A stretch of DNA of 64,000 nucleotides from Bacillota bacterium (GTDB lineage: Bacteria; Bacillota_I; Bacilli_A; RF39; UBA660). Below the pieces are notes generated by a model, which had not been told where the DNA came from, made no database searches, and saw nothing but the letters and a program-made list of their open reading frames with translations. A program made the position numbers and the translations under genes. How positions within the stretch are numbered: the stretch's first letter is position 1; every line of letters starts with the position of its first letter. This document shows, in pieces, positions 27,229 through 63,567 of the stretch. The stretch is taken from contig JAEWOE010000002.1 in NCBI GenBank assembly GCA_023460995.1, positions 77,809 to 141,808 on the forward strand. The letters are read 5' to 3'.

Positions 27229-28917
27229 ATGAAAAATAAAATAGGTTTTACATTAATTGAATTACTTGCAATTATAGTTTTAATTGGTTTGATAGCGTTA
27301 GTTATAACTCCAAAAATAAAAGAAACTTTAACTAAACAAGAGATGAAATCGTTTGAAACAGGTGTTGAAGGAATAATAAAAGCAGTAAAACAAGATATTG
27401 TTAATAATTCTAGCTTTAATTCATCAACTTCTAACTATAGAGCATACTCTTATGGTGCAGATGGATTATATTTAACTGTCTCAGGAAATCAAGCGGTTGA
27501 ATCTAGTGTAAGTATATCAGGTAATATAAAAAATGGTTTTGGCACAGTAATTGCCACAAATAATTCTGATATTATTTTGGCTGTACATGACGATAAATTT
27601 TGTGCTAAAAAAAGTGCTGATGATACAAATATTACAGTTGAAGAGTATACAGGGAGTTGCATAAATGACGAAATTAGTATTCCTGAAGTAACTTCATGTT
27701 ATATTTATGATACTAACCCAGATGATACACTAACTATAACTGGATATAAATATGAGGATAGTACATGTTCAAAGGATCTAATCATTCCTAATAAAATTAA
27801 TGGTAAAAAGGTATCGAAAATTGCGAATTTTGCTTTTGTTGATGCTGAAGTTATATTAGCTAGTTATATAGACTATGATGCTGAAGGAAATGAACATTGG
27901 TATGACGAATTTTTAGACAATATTCCTGATGGTAAAGATATTGTTTGGTTTGAGACTACGAATTTAGCTAATATTAATAGTAAATATTGTTATACTGATA
28001 TGGATGAAGAAAATGAAGCTGATGTTGGATTAAGTTATATTCATACTGAAGGTGATGGATATTATGGTTGTGAATATGATTTTGCCCAGTTAGGTGATTT
28101 AGGAAAAAATAATTACAATATTCAAAGTATTGATTTTTCTCATGCTACGGAGTTAACAGAGATACCTTTAGGTCTTGCTTTTAGTTCAACTATTTCTTCT
28201 ATAAATATAGGTAGTTATATTTATAGCGTTAATTCCTTTGCTTTTGCAGATAATTTCATATCAAGTTTATCTATTCCAGCCAATATAACTTCAATAGGTA
28301 CTTTTGCATTTTATGAAAATAATATTAATAGTTTAGATCTATCTTTGGCAACTTCCTTAAAAGATATAAAGGCCGGAGTTTTTGCTGGAAATATGTTAAA
28401 TAACTTAACCATAAAAAATTTAAATAATTTAGAAAGCATATCTGGTGGTGAATGGGGATCATTTGAAGAAAATTTTCTAACATCAGTTACGCTTGAAAAC
28501 TTGCCCAATTTAACTAATATTGGTCAGTTTGGTGACTCATACGGACCATTTAATTATAATTCTATAACTTCGCTAACTCTTTCTAACTTACCTAATTTAA
28601 CTACAATTGGTGCATGGGCATTTTATGATAATAAAATAGCTAGTTTGAACCTAGTAAATTCTCTTACTTCAATTGGGGAAGGCGCGTTTGCCGCCAATAA
28701 TTTAACTAGTGTTACTATTCCATCTAATGTTACTGTAATCGATGATAAAGCTTTTGCTAAGTGTGGTTGTGGTGAAGGCTCAGATAATGCTGATTTAGTT
28801 GCAATTCAAAATAAAACAGGAAGAAGTTTTGACTGGTCAAAAATTATAGGAGTTGGTAGTACAGCTACATGTTCATTTATAACTGGAACATGCAGTACTG
28901 TAAATATAACTGGATAA
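27229..28917 (+). CDS. prepilin-type (type IV pilin-like N-terminus) protein fused to BspA-like leucine-rich-repeat surface domain
   Basis: MKNKIG/FTLIELLAIIVLIGLIAL class III signal with Glu+5. Repeated IPxNxTSIGxxAF LRR units in the C-terminal half. Confidence 0.65.
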   Translation: MKNKIGFTLIELLAIIVLIGLIALVITPKIKETLTKQEMKSFETGVEGIIKAVKQDIVNNSSFNSSTSNYRAYSYGADGLYLTVSGNQAVESSVSISGNIKNGFGTVIATNNSDIILAVHDDKFCAKKSADDTNITVEEYTGSCINDEISIPEVTSCYIYDTNPDDTLTITGYKYEDSTCSKDLIIPNKINGKKVSKIANFAFVDAEVILASYIDYDAEGNEHWYDEFLDNIPDGKDIVWFETTNLANINSKYCYTDMDEENEADVGLSYIHTEGDGYYGCEYDFAQLGDLGKNNYNIQSIDFSHATELTEIPLGLAFSSTISSINIGSYIYSVNSFAFADNFISSLSIPANITSIGTFAFYENNINSLDLSLATSLKDIKAGVFAGNMLNNLTIKNLNNLESISGGEWGSFEENFLTSVTLENLPNLTNIGQFGDSYGPFNYNSITSLTLSNLPNLTTIGAWAFYDNKIASLNLVNSLTSIGEGAFAANNLTSVTIPSNVTVIDDKAFAKCGCGEGSDNADLVAIQNKTGRSFDWSKIIGVGSTATCSFITGTCSTVNITG

Positions 28918-38065: not shown

Positions 38066-38671
38066 GTGAGCGAATTAGAGAGGATACGTAGGAAAAAGAA
38101 ATCAAGACAAAGTTATACAAATGTGACACCCAAAAAAGGTTGCAAGTATTTTATGTTTTTGACAAAAATTCTTTTAGTTATAATAATAACTTTAATACTT
38201 ATGATTTTAATGAAATGTAATAAATCTTTTAAAGAAAAATTTTATGTTGAGGTATTTGAAAAGAACTTCTCTTTTGCAAGCGTAAATAACTTATATCAAA
38301 AGTATTTAGGATCATTTTTGCCATTTGATGGAATTGCGGATACTGACACCGTTTTTAATGAAAAGTTAACCTATACTGAGGTTAATAAATATTTAGATGG
38401 AGCGAAACTTACTGTAAAAGATTCATATTTAGTACCTTCAGTTCAAAGTGGTTTAGTTGTATATATAGGCGAAAAAGAAGGATACGGTAATACTGTCACT
38501 ATTCAAGGTGTTGATGGAATAGATATATGGTATGGTAATATTGAAAATGTTTCAGTTGAACTATATGATTATGTTGACTTAGGTACATTAATAGGTAATA
38601 CTATAGATACGAATTTATATTTAGTGTATAAAAAAGAAGGAAAAGTGCTTAATTATGAAGATTATCTCTAA
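38066..38671 (+). CDS. SpoIVFA-like membrane protein with degenerate M23/LytM domain
   Basis: Basic N-terminus, TM helix, C-terminal SGLVVYIGEKEGYGNTVTIQGVDGIDIWYGNI LytM-like fold. Directly upstream of an S2P protease gene, as with B. subtilis spoIVFA-spoIVFB. Start uncertain (an alternative ATG at 38153). Confidence 0.5.
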   Translation: MSELERIRRKKKSRQSYTNVTPKKGCKYFMFLTKILLVIIITLILMILMKCNKSFKEKFYVEVFEKNFSFASVNNLYQKYLGSFLPFDGIADTDTVFNEKLTYTEVNKYLDGAKLTVKDSYLVPSVQSGLVVYIGEKEGYGNTVTIQGVDGIDIWYGNIENVSVELYDYVDLGTLIGNTIDTNLYLVYKKEGKVLNYEDYL

Positions 38672-39392
38672 GATTAAGATTCATTTCTTTTTTTATGTAG
38701 TTTTATTTCTTTCAATATTAACTGGTCACTTTAAAACTTTTTTTGCTATGACAATAATAACCATATTCCATGAATTAGGTCATATTATAACAAGCCTTAT
38801 TTTTAAATGGAACATAGATAAAGTAGTAGTTATGCCAATAAGTTTATTAACTATATACAATGTTAAAATTAATACAAAAAAGTATCAAGAATTAATAGTT
38901 ACAATAATGGGGCCAATAGCTCAAATATTTCTTTTTTTCGTTATAAATGATGAAGAAATACTTAGATATAACTTAATGTTGCTTTTATTTAATTTACTTC
39001 CTATATACCCCTTAGATGGTTCAAAAATATTTAAAATAGTATTATATGATTACCTTCCTTTTAAATATGTTGAGAGTATAAATATCTATGTTTCTGTTAT
39101 TACAATAATTTTATTATTATTTGTATCCAAATGGAATTTGATAATTATATTTGTATGTGTACTATTTGTATTTAAGGCAGTAGAGGAGTATAAAAAAAGA
39201 AAATTTATATTTAATAAGTTTTTATTTGAAAGATATTTATATAAGATTAAGTACAAGAAAAATAAAATTATAAATGGACTAAAAAAAGATGATTTTTATA
39301 AAAATTATCATCATAATTTCATTACTAAAAATAAAATAGTTACTGAGGAAGAATTTTTAAGCAAAATGTTTGACAATACAGGGGTTTTATGA
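38655..39392 (+). CDS. site-2 protease (M50 metalloprotease), SpoIVFB-like
   Basis: HELGH zinc motif in TM helix, LLPIYPLDGSKI second motif. Confidence 0.7.
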   Translation: MKIISKIKIHFFFYVVLFLSILTGHFKTFFAMTIITIFHELGHIITSLIFKWNIDKVVVMPISLLTIYNVKINTKKYQELIVTIMGPIAQIFLFFVINDEEILRYNLMLLLFNLLPIYPLDGSKIFKIVLYDYLPFKYVESINIYVSVITIILLLFVSKWNLIIIFVCVLFVFKAVEEYKKRKFIFNKFLFERYLYKIKYKKNKIINGLKKDDFYKNYHHNFITKNKIVTEEEFLSKMFDNTGVL

Positions 39393-45603: not shown

Positions 45604-45906
45604 TTATTTTATATAATCGCCAACTTTATAGTTGTAGTAATTAACTGGAGACTCGTATGCATAATACACATTTTTTTTAGGTAATATTACCTTATATGGT
45701 TTTATATTTTTATATATATATAATATCTTATTATTTTTATCTGTCATATGAACATCTATATTAATAAACATGAACATAGTATGAATACTATTACATCTTG
45801 GAAAGCACAATATATAATTAACTTTTCTTTTAAACATTAGTCCAAAGAATCTTGAAAAAAAACTTTTACAAATAATAACATCTAACTTATTCATATTCTT
45901 CACCAA
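45604..45906 (-). CDS. DUF192-family protein
   Basis: FFGLMFKRK...CFPRCNSIHTMFMFINIDV matches conserved DUF192 core (GLMF...CNSIHTFFM...IDV). Divergent from the flp operon. Confidence 0.55.
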   Translation of the reverse strand: MVKNMNKLDVIICKSFFSRFFGLMFKRKVNYILCFPRCNSIHTMFMFINIDVHMTDKNNKILYIYKNIKPYKVILPKKNVYYAYESPVNYYNYKVGDYIK

Positions 45907-45929
45907 TCATATTATAACATAAAAAGTAA

Positions 45930-45958
45930 TTGACAAAAATATATAAAAAGTATAAAAT
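45930..45958 (+). promoter_or_regulatory. promoter TTGACA-17-TAAAAT for flp/tad operon
   Basis: Consensus -35 with A/T-rich -10 about 40 nt upstream of flp ATG; GGTAGGAGG RBS follows. Confidence 0.45.
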
Positions 45959-45996
45959 TGAAGTATAAAAGGGTAGTAATTGGGTAGGAGGATTTT

Positions 45997-46191
45997 ATGA
46001 ATAATAAAGGACAAGCTTTAGTAGAGTATTTATTAATAATTGCTTTAATTAGTGTTATTGTAGTAAGTCTAGTTAAGTTACTAGGAGGATACTTACAAGA
46101 TTCTGTTACCAAGTCATCTTGTAATTTAATTGACAAAGTTTATGTAGCAGGGGAAAAACCAGGCGAAGGTTACTGCGCAGAATCAGAATAG
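45997..46191 (+). CDS. flp: Flp/Fap-family type IVb (Tad) pilin
   Basis: 64-aa protein, MNNKG/QALVEYLLIIALISVIVV Flp motif (G-x4-EY) then hydrophobic helix. Confidence 0.7.
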   Translation: MNNKGQALVEYLLIIALISVIVVSLVKLLGGYLQDSVTKSSCNLIDKVYVAGEKPGEGYCAESE

Positions 46192-46201
46192 AATAGTTTT
46201 T

Positions 46202-46236
46202 AAAAGAAGAAATATTTATGTACTTCTTCTTTTTTA
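46202..46236 (+). terminator. intra-operon hairpin/terminator immediately after flp pilin gene
   Basis: AAAAGAAGAA-loop-TTCTTCTTTT then TTT. Confidence 0.55.
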
Positions 46237-46292
46237 TTGTTTAATTAGTCGTTTTTTGGTATAATCTTATTAAGATATGCGAGTGTGATTAT

Positions 46293-46667
46293 ATGATAAA
46301 AGATATAAGGAATAGCAAAGGGCAAGCTTTAGTAGAATTTGTTCTTGTAATGCCTATTTTTATCTTTATTATTATGGCTATGATAGATTTAGGAAATATT
46401 ATATATAAAAAGTATAATCTAGAAAATACACTTGATACGGTAGTAGAATTATATAGGCAAGGAGAAAGTCAAAAGATGGCAGCCTATGCATCAGTTGAAA
46501 ATATTGATTTGGATATTTCTTCTGTTAGTACTGATTTAACTAAAGTATCTGTTACGAAAACTATAAATATAATAACACCAGGATTAAATAATATACTCGG
46601 CAAAGATTATACCTTATCAGTAGATAGAACTATTTTTTTTGAAAAGGAAACGTCTATAAATGAATGA
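46293..46667 (+). CDS. TadE-like pseudopilin
   Basis: KGQALVEFVLVMPIFIFIIMAMIDLGNII TadE N-terminal signature. Confidence 0.65.
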   Translation: MIKDIRNSKGQALVEFVLVMPIFIFIIMAMIDLGNIIYKKYNLENTLDTVVELYRQGESQKMAAYASVENIDLDISSVSTDLTKVSVTKTINIITPGLNNILGKDYTLSVDRTIFFEKETSINE

Positions 46668-47052
46668 TAGAAAAGGACAAGTTTTAGTTGCCTTTGTCTT
46701 ATTAATACCAGTAATAATAATGCTGCTGGCGTTAATAGTAGATGTTGGTTTTCTATATGTAGAAAAAAGAAATACTGATAATGTGGTAAGGGATATAACA
46801 AATTATGGGCTTGATAACTTAAATTTAGAAAAAGATATATTACAAGGAAAGATAACTGAGTTAATTAATGCTAATTTAGACGATATACAAAATCTTAATA
46901 TAAATATTGATACTAACAGTGTTGAAATAGATATAACAAGAAATAAGCAAAGTATATTTTCAAATGTATATAAAAAAGCAAGTTATAAAATAACTTCAAA
47001 TTATATTGGTAACATTAATAATTCTGTAAATGATGTAAGGAAGGAGTCATAG
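46660..47052 (+). CDS. TadE/TadF-like pseudopilin
   Basis: KGQVLVAFVLLIPVIIMLLALIVDVG; overlaps the previous gene. Confidence 0.6.
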   Translation: MNDRKGQVLVAFVLLIPVIIMLLALIVDVGFLYVEKRNTDNVVRDITNYGLDNLNLEKDILQGKITELINANLDDIQNLNINIDTNSVEIDITRNKQSIFSNVYKKASYKITSNYIGNINNSVNDVRKES

Positions 47053-47053
47053 T

Positions 47054-47881
47054 ATGGCATTAAAAAAGGCTAAAATATTAACAATAACATCTGTAAGTGG
47101 AGGAACTGGAAAGACAACTACTGCTCTTTGCGTAGCAGGAACTTACTCAACTCTTGGAAAAAAAGTTTTAGTAATAGATTTAGATTTATATACAGGGACT
47201 ATTGCTGCTGCTTTAAACTTAGATGTTAAATCAGACATGTTTATCTTAGTTAATGATTTAAATAATAATAAATTTAAAGGATTAGATGAATATGTAACAA
47301 GTTACAGCGAAAATATTGATATTTTACCAGCTACTAAAGATCCTAGATATGCTAATAAAATTAATGCTAGTTATTTACAACTGGTTTTTGATAAATACTG
47401 TAATAAATATGATTTGATTGTAGTTGATACAGCTGATGATTTTTCACCTTTTAATTTAGTTACTTTCGATTATAGTGACTTAATTATATACGTTATTAAT
47501 AACGATGCAGTAAATTTAAAAAACATGCGTACTATGGTGTCAATATTTAAAGATATGGGTCTTACTAAATATAGAATATTCCTTAATGAGGCAAATAGTA
47601 TTCATAAAAATTATTTCACAAAAAATGATATGAAGAATATTATGAAAGCTAATATAGATTATACTGTTACAAACAGATTCTTTATTAAAAATATAGATAA
47701 ATATTTCTTAGATGGAGTAATTTTGACTTTAGATAAAACAATTAGATCAAAGTATAAAAAAGATATTAAAGAGTTTGAAGAAATTGCTAAGGTTATTATT
47801 GGTGAAACTGAGAAGAATGATAAAAAAGTTGAAAAAGTAAGAGTTTCTAATGACAAAGTAATGAAAGGGGAAAATGAATAG
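47054..47881 (+). CDS. TadZ/CpaE-like ParA/MinD-family ATPase (pilus assembly localisation factor)
   Basis: ILTITSVSGGTGKTTTALCVA degenerate deviant Walker A, VIDLDL, DLIVVDTADD Walker B. Confidence 0.7.
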   Translation: MALKKAKILTITSVSGGTGKTTTALCVAGTYSTLGKKVLVIDLDLYTGTIAAALNLDVKSDMFILVNDLNNNKFKGLDEYVTSYSENIDILPATKDPRYANKINASYLQLVFDKYCNKYDLIVVDTADDFSPFNLVTFDYSDLIIYVINNDAVNLKNMRTMVSIFKDMGLTKYRIFLNEANSIHKNYFTKNDMKNIMKANIDYTVTNRFFIKNIDKYFLDGVILTLDKTIRSKYKKDIKEFEEIAKVIIGETEKNDKKVEKVRVSNDKVMKGENE

Positions 47882-49205
47882 TATGAAGAGTTTTACAGAA
47901 GAATTCCAAGTAAGTATTAAAAAGAATAATTATGTTGAAACTTCCGATTACGAAACATTTCCTAACAAAGTATTACTTGACGAACTTAGAAATAAAATTA
48001 TTCAAAATTTAATTGATAATCGTACCTCATCAAGTGGTGCTCTAGATACTTTTATCAAAAGACAAATAGATGCTACTATTGAAGGATATGATTTAACAGG
48101 AGTTGAGATATCTTATATCTATAACATGATAGATAATGAGATTAATGGATGTGGACCATTAACGGAACTTATGGAAGATCCTAATATAACTGAAATAATG
48201 GTTAATGGAATAGACCAAATTTATATTGAAATTGATGGACGAGTTAGTAAAGATGATAGTGTTTCTTTTATAAATGATGATCATATTATAAGAACAATAC
48301 AGAGAATGATTCAGCCTATCGGTAGAACAATTGATGCTGCTAATCCTATGGTTGACGCAAGACTTTCTGATGGTTCTAGACTTAATGCTATTATAGCGCC
48401 ACTTGCTATTAATGGACCAACTATTACTATTCGTAAGTTTAAGGAAGATTTAGTTTCTATAGATGATTTTTTAAGAACAGGAACATTAACTCCTTATATG
48501 GCTAGATTCTTGGAAGCATGTGTTAAAGCTAAATTAAATATTATTATATGTGGTGGTACTGGTTCTGGTAAAACAACACTTCTTAATGTTTTATCCTCAT
48601 TTATCGGGCAAGATGAACGTATTGTAACAATAGAGGATGCAGCTGAACTTAGATTAAAACAACCACATGTTGTTTCGCTAGAAACAAGACTTGCAAATTA
48701 TGAAGGACAAGGTGCTATAACAATTAGGGATTTAGTTATTAATTCCCTTCGTATGAGACCTGATCGTATTATAGTTGGCGAGTGTCGTGGTGGTGAGGCT
48801 TTTGATATGCTTCAGGCCATGAATACAGGACATTCAGGTAGTTTAACAACTATGCATGCTAATGGGCCTATTGACACTTTAAATAGGCTAGAAACATTAA
48901 TTTTAATGTCTGGTATGGAAATACCAGTTAAAGCTATTCGTGAATATATTGAGAAAGCAATAAATGTCGTGGTTCAAACTGAAAGATTTTCTGATGGACG
49001 TAGAAGAGTAGTGGATATTTCTGAGGTTGTTGGATTTAAAGATGATATGATTGAATTAAAACAAATATTTGGATTTAAGCAAACAGGAAGACTTGATAAC
49101 GGTGATGTTGACGGTGAGTTTATTCAATCTAAACATGTGCCAAAAGTATATGAAACAATGAAAGCCTTTGGTGTAGACAGTATAAAAGTTATTTTTGAAA
49201 AATAG
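47874..49205 (+). CDS. tadA: TadA/CpaF-family secretion ATPase
   Basis: IIICGGTGSGKTTLLNVL Walker A, ERIVTIEDAAEL, GHSGSLTTMHAN His-box. Confidence 0.9.
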   Translation: MNSMKSFTEEFQVSIKKNNYVETSDYETFPNKVLLDELRNKIIQNLIDNRTSSSGALDTFIKRQIDATIEGYDLTGVEISYIYNMIDNEINGCGPLTELMEDPNITEIMVNGIDQIYIEIDGRVSKDDSVSFINDDHIIRTIQRMIQPIGRTIDAANPMVDARLSDGSRLNAIIAPLAINGPTITIRKFKEDLVSIDDFLRTGTLTPYMARFLEACVKAKLNIIICGGTGSGKTTLLNVLSSFIGQDERIVTIEDAAELRLKQPHVVSLETRLANYEGQGAITIRDLVINSLRMRPDRIIVGECRGGEAFDMLQAMNTGHSGSLTTMHANGPIDTLNRLETLILMSGMEIPVKAIREYIEKAINVVVQTERFSDGRRRVVDISEVVGFKDDMIELKQIFGFKQTGRLDNGDVDGEFIQSKHVPKVYETMKAFGVDSIKVIFEK

Positions 49206-49213
49206 GTGATAGT

Positions 49214-50707
49214 ATGATGAATAATAATGGTTTTAGTCTGTATGGAACTTTGACTAATCAGGATATAAATCTTACCTTTACACCTCCTATAAACTTATAT
49301 TCTTTTGAATATACGGTATATAAGAACGGTGGTATATATATAAAAGGAACAGGTTCTAATAACCCAATTGGTTTTAATTTTACTGCTACAGGTACATACA
49401 CTGTCATAGTTACAATGACAGATATTACAGGACATAATACTGTAACTAGTCCTCAATATATTGTTGATAAAGAGAGTCCTATTATTACAGTTTCAAAAGA
49501 TAATATTCAAATAGAAGAAGGAAAAAGCTTAAATGCACTTTCAAATATAGTAGTAACTGATAATTATGATAAAGATTTAAGTAAAGAAGTAACAACAAAT
49601 TATGATGAACTAGATTTTGCTACTATAGGTGAAAAAAAGTTGATATATTCTGTAAGTGATAAAGCAGGCAATAATACTTCTAAAACCATCTATGTTAATG
49701 TTGTAAACGGTGTAGATCCTTATGTAGTATTTATTCAGTGTGGGATAGTAATAGGTTTAATTATATTTATAATTGCTATATTAAAATACAGACATTCAGT
49801 TAAAATAGAAAACCGCATTGCTAAATTTTCTGTAGAATCACTTGAGGATGACCAAATTTCATTATTTGATAAGCTATCACTAGTATTGACTAAATATATT
49901 AAAAAGGGAAGTAATTTATTTAATAAATCGGCTTTTTTAAAAAACTACTCAAAACATTTTGAAAAATATACTTCATTATATAATAGTGAATTAACTAGTA
50001 TGGACCTTGTTTCTATAAAGATTACATTTGGTTTGATTTTCGTGCTTGTTTGTATCTTATCACTGGCAATTAAATCAAGAGTATTACCAGTATATGAATG
50101 GATAATACCTTTCTTTGCCGGGATATTTATAGTTGATATATATTATATAATAAAGTATAAATTTTATCGTAGTAAGATTGAGAATGACTTATTGCAGGCA
50201 ATTATTATAATGAATAATGCTTTTAAATCTGGACGAAGTATTAGTCAAGCTATTGACCTTGTAACTACTGAACTAGAAGGACCTATAGCGAAAGAATTCA
50301 AGAAAATATATGTAGAATTATCCTTTGGTTTAGATTTAAATACTGTATTTAAGAGGTTTGCTGATAGAGTTAATGTTGAAGAAGCATCATATTTAACAGC
50401 GTCACTTACTATTTTAAATAAAACAGGTGGTAACATAGTAAAAGTATTTGATGCTATAGAAAAGTCATTATTTAGTAAAAAGAAATTAAAATTAGAACTA
50501 AATGCATTAACAAGTTCTTCAAAAGTAATAAAGAATATTTTATCAATAGTTCCACTAATTTTCTTTCTTTTAATTAGTTTTATTGATTCAAACTATTTTA
50601 CTGTTTTCTTTAATACACAAATAGGTATTATATTATTTATTCTTATATTAATACTTTATGTATCATATATATTAGTAGTAAATAAAATTATGAAAGTTAG
50701 GATGTGA
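49214..50707 (+). CDS. tadB: TadB-like platform protein (T2SS-F domain) with about 170-aa N-terminal Ig-like (DUF5011-type) domain
   Basis: N-terminal PIITVSKDNIQIEEGKS...VTDNYDKDL...IGEKKLIYSVSDKAGN Ig-like repeat like those in the 15039 hydrolase. TM helix. T2SSF-like LLQAIIIMNNAFKSGRSISQAI...LEGPIAKEF. Confidence 0.75.
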   Translation: MMNNNGFSLYGTLTNQDINLTFTPPINLYSFEYTVYKNGGIYIKGTGSNNPIGFNFTATGTYTVIVTMTDITGHNTVTSPQYIVDKESPIITVSKDNIQIEEGKSLNALSNIVVTDNYDKDLSKEVTTNYDELDFATIGEKKLIYSVSDKAGNNTSKTIYVNVVNGVDPYVVFIQCGIVIGLIIFIIAILKYRHSVKIENRIAKFSVESLEDDQISLFDKLSLVLTKYIKKGSNLFNKSAFLKNYSKHFEKYTSLYNSELTSMDLVSIKITFGLIFVLVCILSLAIKSRVLPVYEWIIPFFAGIFIVDIYYIIKYKFYRSKIENDLLQAIIIMNNAFKSGRSISQAIDLVTTELEGPIAKEFKKIYVELSFGLDLNTVFKRFADRVNVEEASYLTASLTILNKTGGNIVKVFDAIEKSLFSKKKLKLELNALTSSSKVIKNILSIVPLIFFLLISFIDSNYFTVFFNTQIGIILFILILILYVSYILVVNKIMKVRM

Positions 50708-50711
50708 TAAA

Positions 50712-51488
50712 GTGAGTAAGACTAGAATTAATTATAATTACAATGAGGAAAAGATAAGAAACTTACGTGAAAGAAATAAGAAAACAGCAGTAGAATTTGA
50801 TAACAGTATTGTTAATAAAGTTTTTAGAAAAAGTGATATAAAATTAGTAGCAAATAGAATAGCTATGATGGGAAGAACTAAACTTACTGTTAGCTCTTTC
50901 TTAAATTTTAGAATTATGTTAAGCATGTGTGTATTTGTCTTGACACTAACTTTTTCAAAATATAGTTACGTTTTAGCGCCACTTTCAGCAATTGCTGTTT
51001 ATTATGGTAGTTATTATGTTCTAATTTCTAATCCTATAAAAAAAAGAATTTCAAAGTTAGATCATGAAGCACTAAATTTTTTTGAAATTCTTACCCTTAC
51101 TTTAGAATCAGGACGTAATTTAGAAAATTCACTTGAAATAACAGTAGACAATGTTGAATCTGAATTATCGGATGAATTTAGAAAAACTCTATTAGAAATT
51201 AAATTTGGTAAATCACTAATTGAATCATTAGATGGGATGAAACAAAGAATACCATCTGAAACAATTAATAATATTATATTAAATATGACTCAAACAAGCA
51301 TCTTTGGTAGTAATATTTTGGATACTATGAATAATCAAATAGATTTTTTAAGAGATAAACAATTATTAGAAGTAAAAGAAAGAATGAATAGATTACCCAA
51401 TAGAATTAGTATTATATCGGTGTTATTTATTGTTCCACTTATATTACTTTTGGTTTTAGGACCTTTTCTAGTAAACTTTTTGGGTTGA
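50712..51488 (+). CDS. tadC: TadC-like platform protein (T2SS-F domain)
   Basis: FEILTLTLESGRNLENSLEITV...FGKSLIESL T2SSF motifs, 3 TM helices. Confidence 0.7.
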   Translation: MSKTRINYNYNEEKIRNLRERNKKTAVEFDNSIVNKVFRKSDIKLVANRIAMMGRTKLTVSSFLNFRIMLSMCVFVLTLTFSKYSYVLAPLSAIAVYYGSYYVLISNPIKKRISKLDHEALNFFEILTLTLESGRNLENSLEITVDNVESELSDEFRKTLLEIKFGKSLIESLDGMKQRIPSETINNIILNMTQTSIFGSNILDTMNNQIDFLRDKQLLEVKERMNRLPNRISIISVLFIVPLILLLVLGPFLVNFLG

Positions 51489-51541
51489 AATTACAAAATT
51501 TAGTGTATAATATGTATGAATGTTAAGAAAGAAGGATACGA

Positions 51542-52849
51542 ATGAAATATTATTTAGTTGGAATAAAAGGGGCTGGAATGAGTGCGCTGGCACTTATTTT
51601 AAATGATTTAGGTTATGAAGTAATTGGATATGATGATGATAAAAATCATGAATTTACTGAAGACAAATTAGACGAACGTGGTATTAAAATTTTTACTGAC
51701 GAAAATAATATTATTGATAAAAATACTATAGTTATAAGAAGTACGGCTATAAAAGAAAGTCATAGAGAGATAGTAAAAGCTAAATCACTAGATTTAAAAA
51801 TATATGAATATAATGAGATGCTTGGTAAAGTAGCAAATATGTTTGAACTAATTACTGTAGCGGGCTGCCATGGTAAAACAACAACTACTTCTTTATTGGC
51901 ACATGTTCTTAAAAATATGGGTGGTTGTAATTATTTAATAGGTGATGGTACTGGTTATGCTAGTAAAGAAAACAAGAAATTTGTTATAGAAGCATGTGAA
52001 TACTATAGACATTTTCTTGTTTATGAGCCAAATTACGCAATAATAACTAATATTGAACTTGATCATGTCGATTATTTTAAGGATATGCAGGACGTTATTG
52101 ATGCTTATTCAGAGTACGCTAATAATGCAGAAAAAATGGTTATTGCTTGTGGTGATGATCCTTATACGAGAATGTTAGAACTTAATAAACCGATATTCTA
52201 TTATGGAATTGATGAAGATAATGATATAGTAGCAAAGAATATTGAGTACACTTCTGATGGTGTAGAATTCGATGTCTTTGTAGAAGAGAACTATTATGGA
52301 CATTTTGATTTACCATTCTATGGTAAACATATGGTACTTAATACTTTAGCGGTTATTAGTGTTTGTTATTATGAAAGAATGGATGCAAAAGAAGTTTCTA
52401 AAAATTTAAAAACTTTTGGTGGAGCTGAAAGAAGATTTGAAGAAACTATTATAGGTGATACTATCTTAGTTGATGATTATGCACATCATCCAACAGAAGT
52501 TAAAGCTGTTATTAAAGCAGCAAGACAAAAGTATCCTAATAAGAAAGTTGTTGCGGTTTTTCAACCTCATACTTTTTCTAGAACACAAGCTTTCGCTGAA
52601 GATTTAATAAAAGTACTTAATTTAGCTGACAAAGCCTTTGTTTTAGACATATTCCCATCACGTGAAAAACAAGAAGATTTTCCAGGAATAAATTCTGATA
52701 TTATTGTTGGAAAATTAAATAATGGAGAATTAATAACTGATGAAAGTTGGGATAAATTAAAGGAATATAAAGGTGCGATTGTACTTTTCCTTAGTCCAAA
52801 ACAAATTCAAAATTTAATGGAAAAATTTACGGAATACTTAAATTGTTAA
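51542..52849 (+). CDS. murC: UDP-N-acetylmuramate--L-alanine ligase
   Basis: GIKGAGMSALALIL, ITVAGCHGKTTTTSLLAHVL, NIELDHVDYF, GGAERRFE, DDYAHHPTE Mur ligase motifs. Confidence 0.85.
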   Translation: MKYYLVGIKGAGMSALALILNDLGYEVIGYDDDKNHEFTEDKLDERGIKIFTDENNIIDKNTIVIRSTAIKESHREIVKAKSLDLKIYEYNEMLGKVANMFELITVAGCHGKTTTTSLLAHVLKNMGGCNYLIGDGTGYASKENKKFVIEACEYYRHFLVYEPNYAIITNIELDHVDYFKDMQDVIDAYSEYANNAEKMVIACGDDPYTRMLELNKPIFYYGIDEDNDIVAKNIEYTSDGVEFDVFVEENYYGHFDLPFYGKHMVLNTLAVISVCYYERMDAKEVSKNLKTFGGAERRFEETIIGDTILVDDYAHHPTEVKAVIKAARQKYPNKKVVAVFQPHTFSRTQAFAEDLIKVLNLADKAFVLDIFPSREKQEDFPGINSDIIVGKLNNGELITDESWDKLKEYKGAIVLFLSPKQIQNLMEKFTEYLNC

Positions 52850-52913
52850 GTATTCTTTTATTTACTTAAAATTAATAATATTGTATAATAATTATAGGAT
52901 GATAGGTGAATGT

Positions 52914-54002
52914 ATGATGTATGTTTTTAGAAACGAAAAAGGATTTACATTAGCGGAACTGTTAGGTGTTATTACAATTTTGGCGATAATAGCATTAATA
53001 ACAGTACCGCTTGTTAATAAATATGTATTAAGTAGTAGGCAAAAAGCCTATGATGTAGAAATTACTACATTAAAAAAAGCTGCACAACAGTGGTTTACAA
53101 GAAATTCTACTTCCGTTGTTTTCGATGGAAACAGTTTTTATGCACTAGATTTAGAAGAATTGAAACAGAGTGAGTTTTTATCTGATCAACCAATATATAA
53201 TCCATTAAACCCTGATGAAGAAATAACCGGATGTGTTATGATTAAAAAAAATGATAGTATTTATAGTTATGAATATAGTGCAACATGCACTGGCACATTT
53301 AATGTATATGTTAATGGTACAGCAGTATATTTTAATCCTGTAACTGGAGCAAAATGTACAGTAGGTGAAGCTGTGAGCACAACCGGAACAAAAACAGGAT
53401 GCATGAAATGGTATACATTTAATGATAGTTCAGAAAAAGATACTGTTAATTTAATATTAGATCATAATACTACGGCATTAGTAGCATGGAATTCTACTGG
53501 AAGTAATATAAGTGGTCCAACAAATGGGCTTACGCAACTTCAAACTGACACTAGTGCTTGGGTAGGAGTACCAACAAGAACAGATAGTTATAGTGTAAGT
53601 AATGGAACAGCTACATATACTATAAACTATAATACTTATAAAGCACGACTAATAACGGCAGCAGAAATTGCGACAATAACAGGAAACAGTAGTTTTAATG
53701 AGTCAAATAGTGGAGCACTTACTTGGTTTTATTTAGATAGTAATAATCAAACTCAAACAGCCACTTCAACTGGAACTAGTAATTATGATTGGTTATTTGA
53801 TTATACATACTACTGTACAGATTATGGGTGTAGTATTGCTGATTCAAGTACAAGTGGTTACTGGACAGCCACATCTGTTCCATTTTCTTCAAGAAGTACT
53901 TGGATTGTACGTCGTAACGGGTACTTGCATAACCTTGAAGTAGAAAATACAATTAACTACGGTATTCGCCCAGTTATAACTATTTCAAAATCTAGTCTTT
54001 AA
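52914..54002 (+). CDS. prepilin-type (type IVa-like) pseudopilin/minor pilin, Ser/Thr-rich
   Basis: MMYVFRNEKG/FTLAELLGVITILAIIALI class III signal (Gly-1, Glu+5). AGGTGA RBS; track ORF start 52881 is upstream. Confidence 0.65.
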   Translation: MMYVFRNEKGFTLAELLGVITILAIIALITVPLVNKYVLSSRQKAYDVEITTLKKAAQQWFTRNSTSVVFDGNSFYALDLEELKQSEFLSDQPIYNPLNPDEEITGCVMIKKNDSIYSYEYSATCTGTFNVYVNGTAVYFNPVTGAKCTVGEAVSTTGTKTGCMKWYTFNDSSEKDTVNLILDHNTTALVAWNSTGSNISGPTNGLTQLQTDTSAWVGVPTRTDSYSVSNGTATYTINYNTYKARLITAAEIATITGNSSFNESNSGALTWFYLDSNNQTQTATSTGTSNYDWLFDYTYYCTDYGCSIADSSTSGYWTATSVPFSSRSTWIVRRNGYLHNLEVENTINYGIRPVITISKSSL

Positions 54003-54028
54003 AAAAAGCAATTAATGAGGTGTTTAGT

Positions 54029-54418
54029 ATGAAAAATAAGGGATTTACATTAACTGAGTTAATAGCGGTAATTGTCCTACTTGGAATCATTGCTTTAATT
54101 GCTATTCCAGTTATAAATGGAACAATAGTTAATTCAAAAAATAAGGCATATAATACACAAGTAAGTACAATTGAAAACACAGCCAAAAAGTGGGGAGTAG
54201 AGAATACGGCATTACTACCTAATGATGAAAATGAGTGTAAAGTTTCAATCGTAGAGTTAATAGCGCAAGGATTTATAGAAGATGATGAAATTATAGATCC
54301 ACGAGATGATTCTAAAATGAATGGTAGTATTGAAGTAAGTTATTCTGTCACTAGTAAAACATATCATTATGTTTATAATGAAACAGTTGATGTGGCTGTA
54401 CCTAATTGTATAAAATAA
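54029..54418 (+). CDS. type IV pilin-like protein (PilA/ComGC-like)
   Basis: MKNKG/FTLTELIAVIVLLGIIALIAIPV prepilin N-terminus, about 125 aa. GAGGTG RBS. Confidence 0.75.
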   Translation: MKNKGFTLTELIAVIVLLGIIALIAIPVINGTIVNSKNKAYNTQVSTIENTAKKWGVENTALLPNDENECKVSIVELIAQGFIEDDEIIDPRDDSKMNGSIEVSYSVTSKTYHYVYNETVDVAVPNCIK

Positions 54419-62973: not shown

Positions 62974-63567
62974 ATGAAGGATATTTTTATTTATGCATTA
63001 ATAATAGTTAATTTACTTGTTTTAACAATAATAAATTATAAAAGTGATAACCAAACTAATTTAATAAGTGTTGAAGTTAAGGGGTATGTAAATGAACCGG
63101 GAGTATATGAAATTGAGGATGGTTCAGTAGTAAATGATTTAATTATTAAAGCTGGTGGACTTAGTAGTAATGCTGATATTAGTGTCATTAATCTAGCTAG
63201 AAATTTATCTGATGAAGATGTGGTAATTATATATTCTAATGAAGAAATTTCTGAAATGAAAGAGGGTAGTACTAGTGTAAAATACATTGACAAAGAGTGT
63301 GTATGCCCTGTTATAGATAATAGTGCTTTATTTGATAAAGTTATTACTAATGCTGAAGGAATAATTATAGATACAGGTAAAGTATCACTAAATAGCGCGA
63401 CTATAAAAGAACTGATGACTTTACCAGGAATAGGTGAGTCTAAAGCTAAGTTAATAATAGAATATCGTAATAACAATAAAGGATTTAAAGAGATAGAAGA
63501 AATAAAGAACGTTAAAGGAATAGGTAGTTCTATTTATGAAAAAATTAAAGATTATCTTACTCTTTAG
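62974..63567 (+). CDS. comEA: competence protein ComEA (SLBB plus helix-hairpin-helix DNA-binding domains)
   Basis: N-terminal TM anchor, VNEPGVYEIEDGSVVNDLIIKAGG SLBB, VSLNSATIKELMTLPGIGESKAKLIIEYR HhH. Confidence 0.85.
   Translation: MKDIFIYALIIVNLLVLTIINYKSDNQTNLISVEVKGYVNEPGVYEIEDGSVVNDLIIKAGGLSSNADISVINLARNLSDEDVVIIYSNEEISEMKEGSTSVKYIDKECVCPVIDNSALFDKVITNAEGIIIDTGKVSLNSATIKELMTLPGIGESKAKLIIEYRNNNKGFKEIEEIKNVKGIGSSIYEKIKDYLTL

Follow-up and report, generated by a model that had tools for sequence, protein, structure and literature searches.

The Tad/Flp locus

This report concerns a cluster of type IV filament genes at positions 45,604 to 54,418 of a 64,000-nucleotide stretch of DNA from a Bacillota bacterium (contig JAEWOE010000002.1); the whole stretch is referred to below as the window. 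The window has a G+C content of 27%, and nearly all of its coding sequence is on the plus strand. The gene order in the cluster was confirmed as a DUF192 gene on the minus strand followed by flp, two tadE-like genes, tadZ, tadA, tadB, tadC, murC and two genes encoding prepilins with a GFTLxE motif (Table 1). An earlier reading of the letters, made without database searches (the sequence-only reading), had listed these genes, and profile searches found every one of them where it had been placed. The locus is a genuine type IVc (Flp/Tad) pilus locus of a monoderm. The searches also bore out the divergent DUF192 gene upstream, the assignment of the two downstream prepilins to another pilin class (N_methyl, PilE/GspG-like) and the lack of a prepilin peptidase, PilB, PilC or secretin gene in the window.

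The locus was compared with 67 related tad loci, taken from one genome per species, in which TadA is 60-97% identical to the TadA of the window. All 67 relatives are uncultured gut metagenome-assembled genomes labeled Bacilli, Mollicutes, Tenericutes or Erysipelotrichaceae, including CAG:822, CAG:710 and Ca. Coprosoma. Names like CAG-822 and CAG-710 suggest that this clade is the GTDB order RF39; a look-up in the NCBI taxonomy was uninformative. The tadE1-tadE2-tadZ-tadA-tadB-tadC core is kept in all 67 species-level relatives, and a locus identical to that of the window is also present on ENA and Logan metagenome contigs. Individual loci are cited below by number (e.g., L003).

Table 1. Features of the window that are discussed in the text. 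Bit scores are from profile matches, with cut-offs in parentheses.
Feature	Position	Strand	Remarks
Third GFTLIE prepilin	27229..28917	+	562 aa; LRR (leucine-rich repeat) adhesin-like C-terminus; HupY/LrrG LRR adhesin 73.5 bits; GspG 30.6 bits
DUF192 gene	45604..45906	-	Divergent from flp; PF02643 32.6 bits (27)
Best sigma-70-like promoter match	45930..45958	+	TTGACA-17-TAAAAT, 11/12 matches, 39 bp 5' of flp; consensus match only
flp, Flp-type major prepilin	45997..46191	+	64 aa; leader MNNKG, then QALVEY; 59-aa mature protein
tadE-like pseudopilin 1	46293..46667	+	G/QALVEF; PF07811 42.8 bits (22.9)
tadE/tadF-like pseudopilin 2	46660..47052	+	G/QVLVAF; PF07811 27 bits, PF13400 22.6 bits, TadF 16.9 bits
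tadZ/cpaE-like ParA/MinD-family ATPase	47054..47881	+	ATPase domain only; AAA_31 50.6 bits, CbiA 35.5 bits, MipZ 31.3 bits
tadA/cpaF motor ATPase	47874..49205	+	T2SSE 200.9 bits; TIGR03819 331 bits
tadB, single-domain platform	49214..50707	+	497 aa; T2SSF 44.8 bits, residues 333-454
tadC, single-domain platform	50712..51488	+	258 aa; T2SSF 59.6 bits; last tad gene
murC, peptidoglycan ligase	51542..52849	+	Mur_ligase, Mur_ligase_M and Mur_ligase_C domains
Modular type IVa-style prepilin	52914..54002	+	373 aa; G/FTLAE; alternative TTG start at 52881; N_methyl PF07963 26.7 bits, TIGR02532 19.4 bits
Small type IVa-style prepilin	54029..54418	+	132 aa; G/FTLTE; alternative start at 54020; N_methyl PF07963 28.9 bits, TIGR02532 31.1 bits
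comEA	62974..63567	+	SLBB and HHH_3 domains; missed by the sequence-only reading

Proteins of the tad operon

Judged by the defining features of its predicted proteins, the operon is a Tad/Flp operon with two exceptions, namely that it has no dedicated TadV peptidase and that its Flp pilin scores below threshold. The best solved structures for TadA are those of Caulobacter CpaF (9e24 and 8rkd; 348 bits, E ~5e-103), and the next class of ATPase reaches 146 bits; its best NCBIfam match, TIGR03819, falls below the cut-off of 373. TadZ is over the cut-off for AAA_31, CbiA and MipZ, scores only 24.5 bits with the actinobacterial CpaE-homolog model and keeps its position in all 67 loci. The Flp protein obtains 21 bits with Pfam Flp_Fap, under the gathering cut-off of 32.2, and so the assignment of flp relies on its motif, its size, its position and the 55-100% identical orthologs in the same slot. 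All 19 Flp orthologs retain the GQALVEY motif and both cysteines. The two cysteines lie near the C-terminus (…SSC… and …PGEGxC) in all of the orthologs, which suggests a disulfide-closed loop in the pilin of an anaerobe.

The first TadE-like protein was found in nearly all of the 67 relatives. The second one has Ala, not Glu, at position +5, and its orthologs occupy the same slot in the relatives. The otherwise invariant Glu +5 is missing from it throughout the clade (GQVLVAF, GQTLVLF and GQSLIIF among the window protein and the orthologs in L006-L066). Two loci, L055 and L069, have an unrelated membrane protein of 168-175 amino acids in its place. TadB also departs from the usual architecture. 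Its residues 96-163 match Bact_surface_Ig-like (24.5 bits) and lie in an N-terminal Ig-like/HYR region of ~170 amino acids, which precedes the first transmembrane helix and has no recognizable signal peptide. TadB proteins of 496-500 amino acids with the Ig-like N-terminus occur in relatives as well.

A TadV-type peptidase, that is, an A24 enzyme without the N-terminal PilD domain, was found in none of the 67 related tad loci and not in the window, either by a motif search or by jackhmmer seeded with a Methylococcaceae TadV. Those A24 enzymes that were seen in the clade are all of the PilD type, and their genes adjoin pilB/pilC. Neither an A24 peptidase of any kind, nor a PilB-class ATPase, nor a PilC-class two-domain platform is encoded in the window. 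A motif scan of the window returned exactly five canonical class III signal peptides, the fifth being that of the 562-amino-acid GFTLIE prepilin, and the leaders of the Flp, TadE and GFTLxE proteins are alike in being short and basic with Gly at -1 and Glu at +5. Promoter and terminator scans of the region gave as many matches as shuffled sequence and therefore do not define the operon boundaries. In ~60% of the relatives (L015-L033; e.g., L017 8423-8491), tadE1 is the first gene of the tad operon; it comes directly behind mutS or some other gene, and neither flp nor DUF192 is nearby.

The DUF192 and murC neighbors

Among the 53 loci with enough upstream sequence to judge, flp lies directly upstream of tad in 19, and 17 of those 19 have a divergent DUF192 gene. 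In total, DUF192 occurs in 20 tad loci and also at tad in a member of the Dehalococcoidia (L070); none of the 80 PilB loci described below has it. To judge by this distribution, DUF192 is an accessory gene that recurs in the tad loci of monoderms. A DUF192 gene has also been reported inside the tad operon of Bulleidia in a 2025 paper (PMC12786226); this was the sole link between DUF192 and tad that we found in the literature, and a search for a characterized function of DUF192 returned none. The DUF192 protein of the window has no signal peptide.

The sequence-only reading had placed murC inside the locus. The gene is indeed there, and it is better described as the gene after tadC, a position that it holds in the window and in 22 of the 52 relatives that could be judged (~42%). 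Since it follows tadC in just this fraction of the loci, we regard murC as a frequent housekeeping neighbor and not as a component of the pilus.

The GFTLxE prepilins

In the larger of the two prepilins downstream of murC, with 373 amino acids, the N-terminal part has a pilin fold, and behind it comes a separate globular domain of a non-pilin family. The best match of its family profile among solved structures is PilE1 of S. sanguinis (8pfb). The C-terminal module matches many C-type lectin domains and has a lectin-like fold. The sequence identity to C-type-lectin-like adhesin modules, including the C-terminal domain of Legionella Lcl and DUF1566/DUF6273, is only ~14%, and in this part the window protein is under every Pfam threshold; some of its homologs carry DUF6273 or Ig-like domains recognized by Pfam. 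The protein is thus a PilE/GspG-like pilin module fused to a C-type-lectin-like (DUF6273-type) module, and it is a probable adhesin subunit.

The smaller prepilin, with 132 amino acids, matches GspG (TIGR01710) at 33 bits, below the cut-off, and ComGC at 26 bits with a cut-off of 75. Its 32 homologs are confined to the genus-level group, and its closest homolog outside the genus (54% identity; L108) is encoded 8 kb from pilB-pilD-pilC. The two prepilin genes are retained as a pair in the genus relatives L088 and L089.

A third prepilin of this class (GFTLIE), which had been overlooked earlier, is encoded by a lone gene between a lipoprotein gene and yigZ/uvrC. As this gene is 18 kb away from tad, the GFTLxE pilin genes are scattered on the chromosome. 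The family is large. There are 2,676 homologs of the 373-amino-acid pilin, with several paralogs per contig; for example, one genus relative has four pilin genes in 21 kb (L170, 1-17928), beside pgk, clpB/ylmH and murE-murF-mraY, and another has five intact tandem pilin genes within 21 kb (L172, 10001-16321). The heads of this modular repertoire include DUF6273/C-type-lectin-like, LRR_5, Ig-like, Gly-rich ALK_LTK_GRD and ricin domains. The large and variable N_methyl pilin repertoire of these reduced-genome gut Bacilli looks like an adhesin or antigenic-variation set.

A second filament machine in the relatives

A second T2SSE ATPase is encoded 7-9 kb from the tad operon in four of the relatives (L016, L017, L019 and L046). 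It belongs to the GspE/PilB class, scoring 488 bits with GspE, 472 with PilB and 261 with ComGA (cut-off 300), has a tetracysteine CxxC…CxxC and is annotated as PilB by JGI. Its gene is divergent from two conserved minor-pilin genes. The pilB gene and these two genes are on the tad contig in the same four relatives and in L094; on these five contigs pilB has neither pilC nor pilD beside it. Homologs of the ATPase number at least 8,000, the top 120 all being at least 80% identical.

A metagenome scan with this ATPase yielded 80 related PilB loci, in which the neighboring genes, such as obg, uvrC and def, are 54-71% identical to their orthologs in the window. A pilD gene is immediately downstream of pilB in 31 of the 80 (A24_N_bact 126 bits, Peptidase_A24 52 bits), and in 27 of the 80 pilD is followed by a gene for a PilC-type platform of 565-838 amino acids with two T2SSF domains (187 bits). 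A jackhmmer search started from TadB and TadC had suggested that there is no platform near PilB. This was a false negative of too narrow a profile, as Pfam shows a neighbor with two T2SSF domains, and a re-seeded search of the PilB loci found 29 two-domain platforms. The PilC of this clade has a long multi-spanning N-terminal extension before its T2SSF domains, which makes it about twice the usual size (L131 12137-14281; L106 12326-14842; L103 12474-14780). In two loci (L121 and L131), pilC-pilD-pilB stands in one block with dnaG-rpoD-comEC-comEA. A pair of pilin genes beside pgk in L170 resembles the minor-pilin pair that adjoins pilB, and it is not that pair.

Placement of GFTLxE pilin genes relative to tad

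Pilin genes of the GFTLxE class abut the tad operon or lie inside it in ~10 of the 67 loci (15%), at varied positions. They follow murC in the window, L003, L010, L013 and L029, follow tadC in L008 and lie upstream of tadE1 in L060; those inside the operon are considered below with the interpretation. The tad-associated pilins are just 25-36% identical to one another, and this low identity implies that pilin genes were placed at tad several times independently. Within the genus, the block from obg to pfkB is entirely collinear with the window in L088 and L089. The whole block being syntenic, the fact that pilin and tad genes travel together at the genus level is uninformative about function.

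The frequency of these associations has to be compared with the background of pilin genes. In 672 kb of DNA flanking the 67 tad loci there are ~10-11 further pilin clusters, i.e., ~1 per 64 kb or ~20 per genome. With ~20 clusters, ~1,400 gene junctions per genome and ~10 tad junctions, a pilin gene would be expected at a tad junction in ~13% of the genomes (~9), very near the observed number. These figures imply that the adjacency is not beyond chance. A null model calculated per base pair would give ~1 expected case and an apparent enrichment; it was rejected since genes fit only at gene junctions.

The sequence-only reading had raised the question of which neighbors travel with the tad genes in related genomes. 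The DUF192 gene does so with flp, murC follows the operon in part of the clade and the GFTLxE pilin genes are found at tad in only the small fraction given above.

One locus, L029 (2840-4962 and 8573-8892), has a pilin gene between tadA and tadB that is 85% identical to the copy after its murC gene, and another copy inside the operon is fragmented. These copies suggest that pilin cassettes have recently been duplicated and have decayed in this tad locus.

Interpretation and alternatives

The arrangement is probably that of two ordinary type IV filament systems whose genes stand side by side, and not that of a hybrid. The first system would consist of the monoderm Tad/Flp operon (45,997-51,488) and its divergent DUF192 gene. 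Flp would be its small major subunit, the two TadE-like proteins would act as minor or priming pilins and TadZ as a ParA-like organizer, and TadA, the single CpaF-type motor, would polymerize Flp on the split TadB/TadC platform; a secretin would be unneeded. In this arrangement murC would simply be the next housekeeping gene. The prepilins encoded after murC would be substrates of the second system, polymerized by PilB on PilC and drawn from a large, fast-diversifying and scattered repertoire, and the cluster for two minor pilins, PilB, the two-domain PilC and PilD would lie elsewhere. Presumably these filaments function in adhesion and possibly also in DNA uptake.

We infer that the genome of the window also carries pilBCD. 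Flp, the TadE-like proteins and the GFTLxE prepilins, of which at least three are intact and conserved, all need a peptidase, so a peptidase gene must lie elsewhere in the genome. Its product would probably be a PilD that is shared by the two systems and matures the Flp, TadE and GFTLxE pilins, because TadV is missing from the 67 loci, only PilD-type A24 enzymes were seen and both pilin classes share Gly(-1) and Glu(+5). It is known that Gram-positive bacteria often hold several pil, com and tad operons and that pilin genes need not adjoin the genes of their machinery (PMC3244431). A search of the literature for work on the pili of this clade found nothing.

The sequence-only reading had instead raised the possibility of a hybrid or undescribed filament system, in which a single Tad ATPase and platform would handle the two kinds of pilin. 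This proposal is not supported, given the separate and complete PilB-PilD-PilC cluster of the relatives and an adjacency rate near chance. It had added that the proposal would fail if tad and GFTLxE pilin genes were never found together in related genomes, or if a separate type IVa or Com machinery accounted for those pilins. The two do occur together, as described above. A separate machinery does exist at the level of the clade, but pilBCD was not located in the genome of the window.

Several observations weigh against two separate systems. GFTLxE pilin genes are found inside the tad operon, between flp and tadE1 in L034 and L035 (the pilin of L035 has 1,074 amino acids) and 1-11 bp after tadA in L012 and L029. 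Of five foreign genes found within tad operons, four encode GFTLxE pilins, which may reflect co-expression with Tad or may mean that pilin genes are the most mobile gene class here. The junction-based null model treats junctions within an operon as being as permissive to insertion as any other junction. Furthermore, pilB, pilC, pilD or any other prepilin peptidase gene was not located in 83 kb of the window contig and 42 kb from genus relatives (~125 kb). In relatives the order is dnaG-rpoD-trmK-yqfQ-pilC-pilD-pilB, followed by the two minor-pilin genes, and in the window genome yqfQ is followed by rpsO-pnp (L086 19537-19935, to be compared with L131 11364-14718, L106 and L128). Because yqfQ runs directly into rpsO-pnp, the pil block must have been relocated or lost in the genus of the window.

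The in-operon pilins (L012, L029, L034 and L035) and the absence of pilBCD from the syntenic site would both be explained if one system used, or had taken over, parts of the other. TadA and TadB/TadC would then place GFTLxE pilins into Flp filaments, as tip or minor adhesins or as alternative major subunits, with one shared peptidase. The embedding of these genes at several positions, their abutment in L060, L008, the window, L003, L010 and L013, the preponderance of pilins among the foreign in-operon genes and the several independent placements implied by their low mutual identity are all in favor of such coupling, as are the lack of flp beside the tad operon in ~60% of the relatives, the common layout of the Flp, TadE and GFTLxE leaders and the absence of TadV from every tad locus. 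However, the clade has a dedicated PilB-PilC-PilD cluster with its own minor pilins, and five relatives have PilB and those minor pilins on the tad contig itself. Moreover, with ~20 pilin clusters per genome the adjacency rate is that of chance, and the pilin genes are as often beside pgk, mur genes, uvrC and clpB. We therefore consider functional coupling unlikely. To our knowledge, no Tad filament that contains N_methyl/PilE-like pilins has been described. A wider idea, to which we give little chance, is that the Tad motor and platform of this clade also work on modular pilins of the PilE/GspG-like kind, so that Flp filaments would carry interchangeable lectin, LRR or Ig adhesins and a single PilD would be shared by the two systems.

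Another explanation is that the downstream pilins belong to a Com-type DNA-uptake pilus, with PilB, PilC and PilD in the roles of ComGA, ComGB and ComC and working with ComEA and ComEC. Com pili are widespread in monoderms (PMC10191384). The comEA gene lies at the right end of the window, and comEC is just beyond that edge (DUF4131, Competence and Lactamase_B domains; comEA-comEC: window 62974-63567 and L086 10563-12596). Additional points in its favor are the dnaG-rpoD-comEC-comEA block that contains pilC-pilD-pilB in L121 and L131, the 261 bits of the PilB-class ATPase with ComGA and the weak matches of its two neighboring pilins to ComGE and ComGF. However, the ATPase scores higher with GspE and PilB, and the ComGA score is under its cut-off. 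Com systems have five small pilins, whereas here there are dozens of large modular ones with lectin-like, LRR and Ig-like heads, and the 132-amino-acid pilin reaches only about a third of the ComGC cut-off. This explanation is improbable as an alternative to an adhesive pilus, and adhesion and DNA uptake are not mutually exclusive roles. The presence of comEA-comEC means that the organism may take up DNA by one of its type IV filaments.

That the two pilin genes are decaying orphans left after the machinery was lost in the genus is very improbable: pilBCD is indeed absent from the syntenic site and from all of the genus sequence sampled, and an in-operon pilin copy of L029 is fragmented, but both open reading frames are intact in the window and in the genus relatives (63-84% identity), Gly(-1), Phe1, Glu5 and the Cys pairs are invariant and many core residues are held across 45 homologs, the family is expanded in the genus (the five intact tandem copies of L172), and Flp and TadE also need the peptidase, so that its gene must persist.

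Comparison with known systems

The operon resembles the Tad/Flp systems of Caulobacter (Cpa) and Aggregatibacter (Tad) and the tad loci of Gram-positive bacteria (Imam et al. 2011; Bifidobacterium breve; Bulleidia extructa, 2025) in its CpaF-type ATPase, its split TadB and TadC with one T2SSF domain each, its ParA-like TadZ, its two TadE-like pseudopilins, its probable Flp pilin of ~60 amino acids with G/xxxxEY and the absence of a secretin, as in other monoderm loci. The association with a DUF192 gene is shared with the Bulleidia tad locus. Unlike a textbook Tad system, it has no TadV, either here or in the 67 related loci, and no CpaB/RcpC or TadG; TadZ lacks the N-terminal domain, TadB has an Ig-like region at its N-terminus, there is no Glu5 in the second pseudopilin and flp is missing from the locus in ~60% of the relatives.

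The GFTLxE pilins resemble those of monoderm type IVa pili, such as PilE1/PilE2 and the modular pilins PilB and PilC of S. sanguinis (PMC10191384). They have the N_methyl class III signal peptide G/FTLxE, the N-terminal module is nearest to PilE1 (8pfb), a non-pilin adhesive module is grafted onto it (here C-type-lectin-like), and the relatives encode a PilB-class ATPase, a two-domain PilC and a PilD with A24_N_bact. The differences from S. sanguinis are that the genes are dispersed and not gathered in one pil locus, that no PilT or PilMNO was seen near pilBCD, that the pilins form a very large set, with dozens in each genome and some in tandem arrays, that PilC has a long N-terminal extension (565-838 amino acids in all) and that the machine was not located in the window genome.

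With the Com pilus of Bacilli (ComGA-GG and ComC) the system shares the monoderm host, comEA/comEC, the partial ComGA similarity and the weak ComGE/ComGF matches. It differs from it in having no comG-type operon, in an ATPase that has the C-terminal zinc-finger region of GspE/PilB and stays below the ComGA cut-off, and in large, modular pilins that do not match ComGC.

As an observation of another kind, several sporulation-associated families are encoded in this small-genome lineage, namely a SpoIVFB-like M50 peptidase, YlbD/YlbE, YqfQ, Spo0A_C and SpoVIF (window 38655-39392; L087 20105-20694; L170 4155-4922; L172 17048-17290).

Significance

The Tad pili of Gram-positive gut commensals are colonization factors, and they have been little studied outside Bifidobacterium. 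It has been known since 2011 that the tad operons of Gram-positive bacteria are diverse, that pil, com and tad systems coexist and that pilin genes can lie apart from those of the machines that they serve (PMC3244431). If this locus did encode a hybrid machine, the finding would be important; the evidence does not favor it. The by-products of the analysis are of more interest, that is, the expansion of modular pilins, the pairing of flp with DUF192, the apparent sharing of PilD and the in-operon pilins of four relatives.

In conclusion, an entire uncultured clade has conserved a minimal Tad operon that lacks a secretin, CpaB and TadV and has DUF192 as a partner. A separate PilBCD machine and an unusually large, variable set of modular adhesin pilins accompany it, which should be useful for the annotation of gut metagenome-assembled genomes and which provides candidates for adhesion and immunogenicity. 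That Flp probably relies on a peptidase of the PilD type and that some tad operons contain GFTLxE pilins are concrete instances in which a possible cross-talk of type IV filament systems can be tested.

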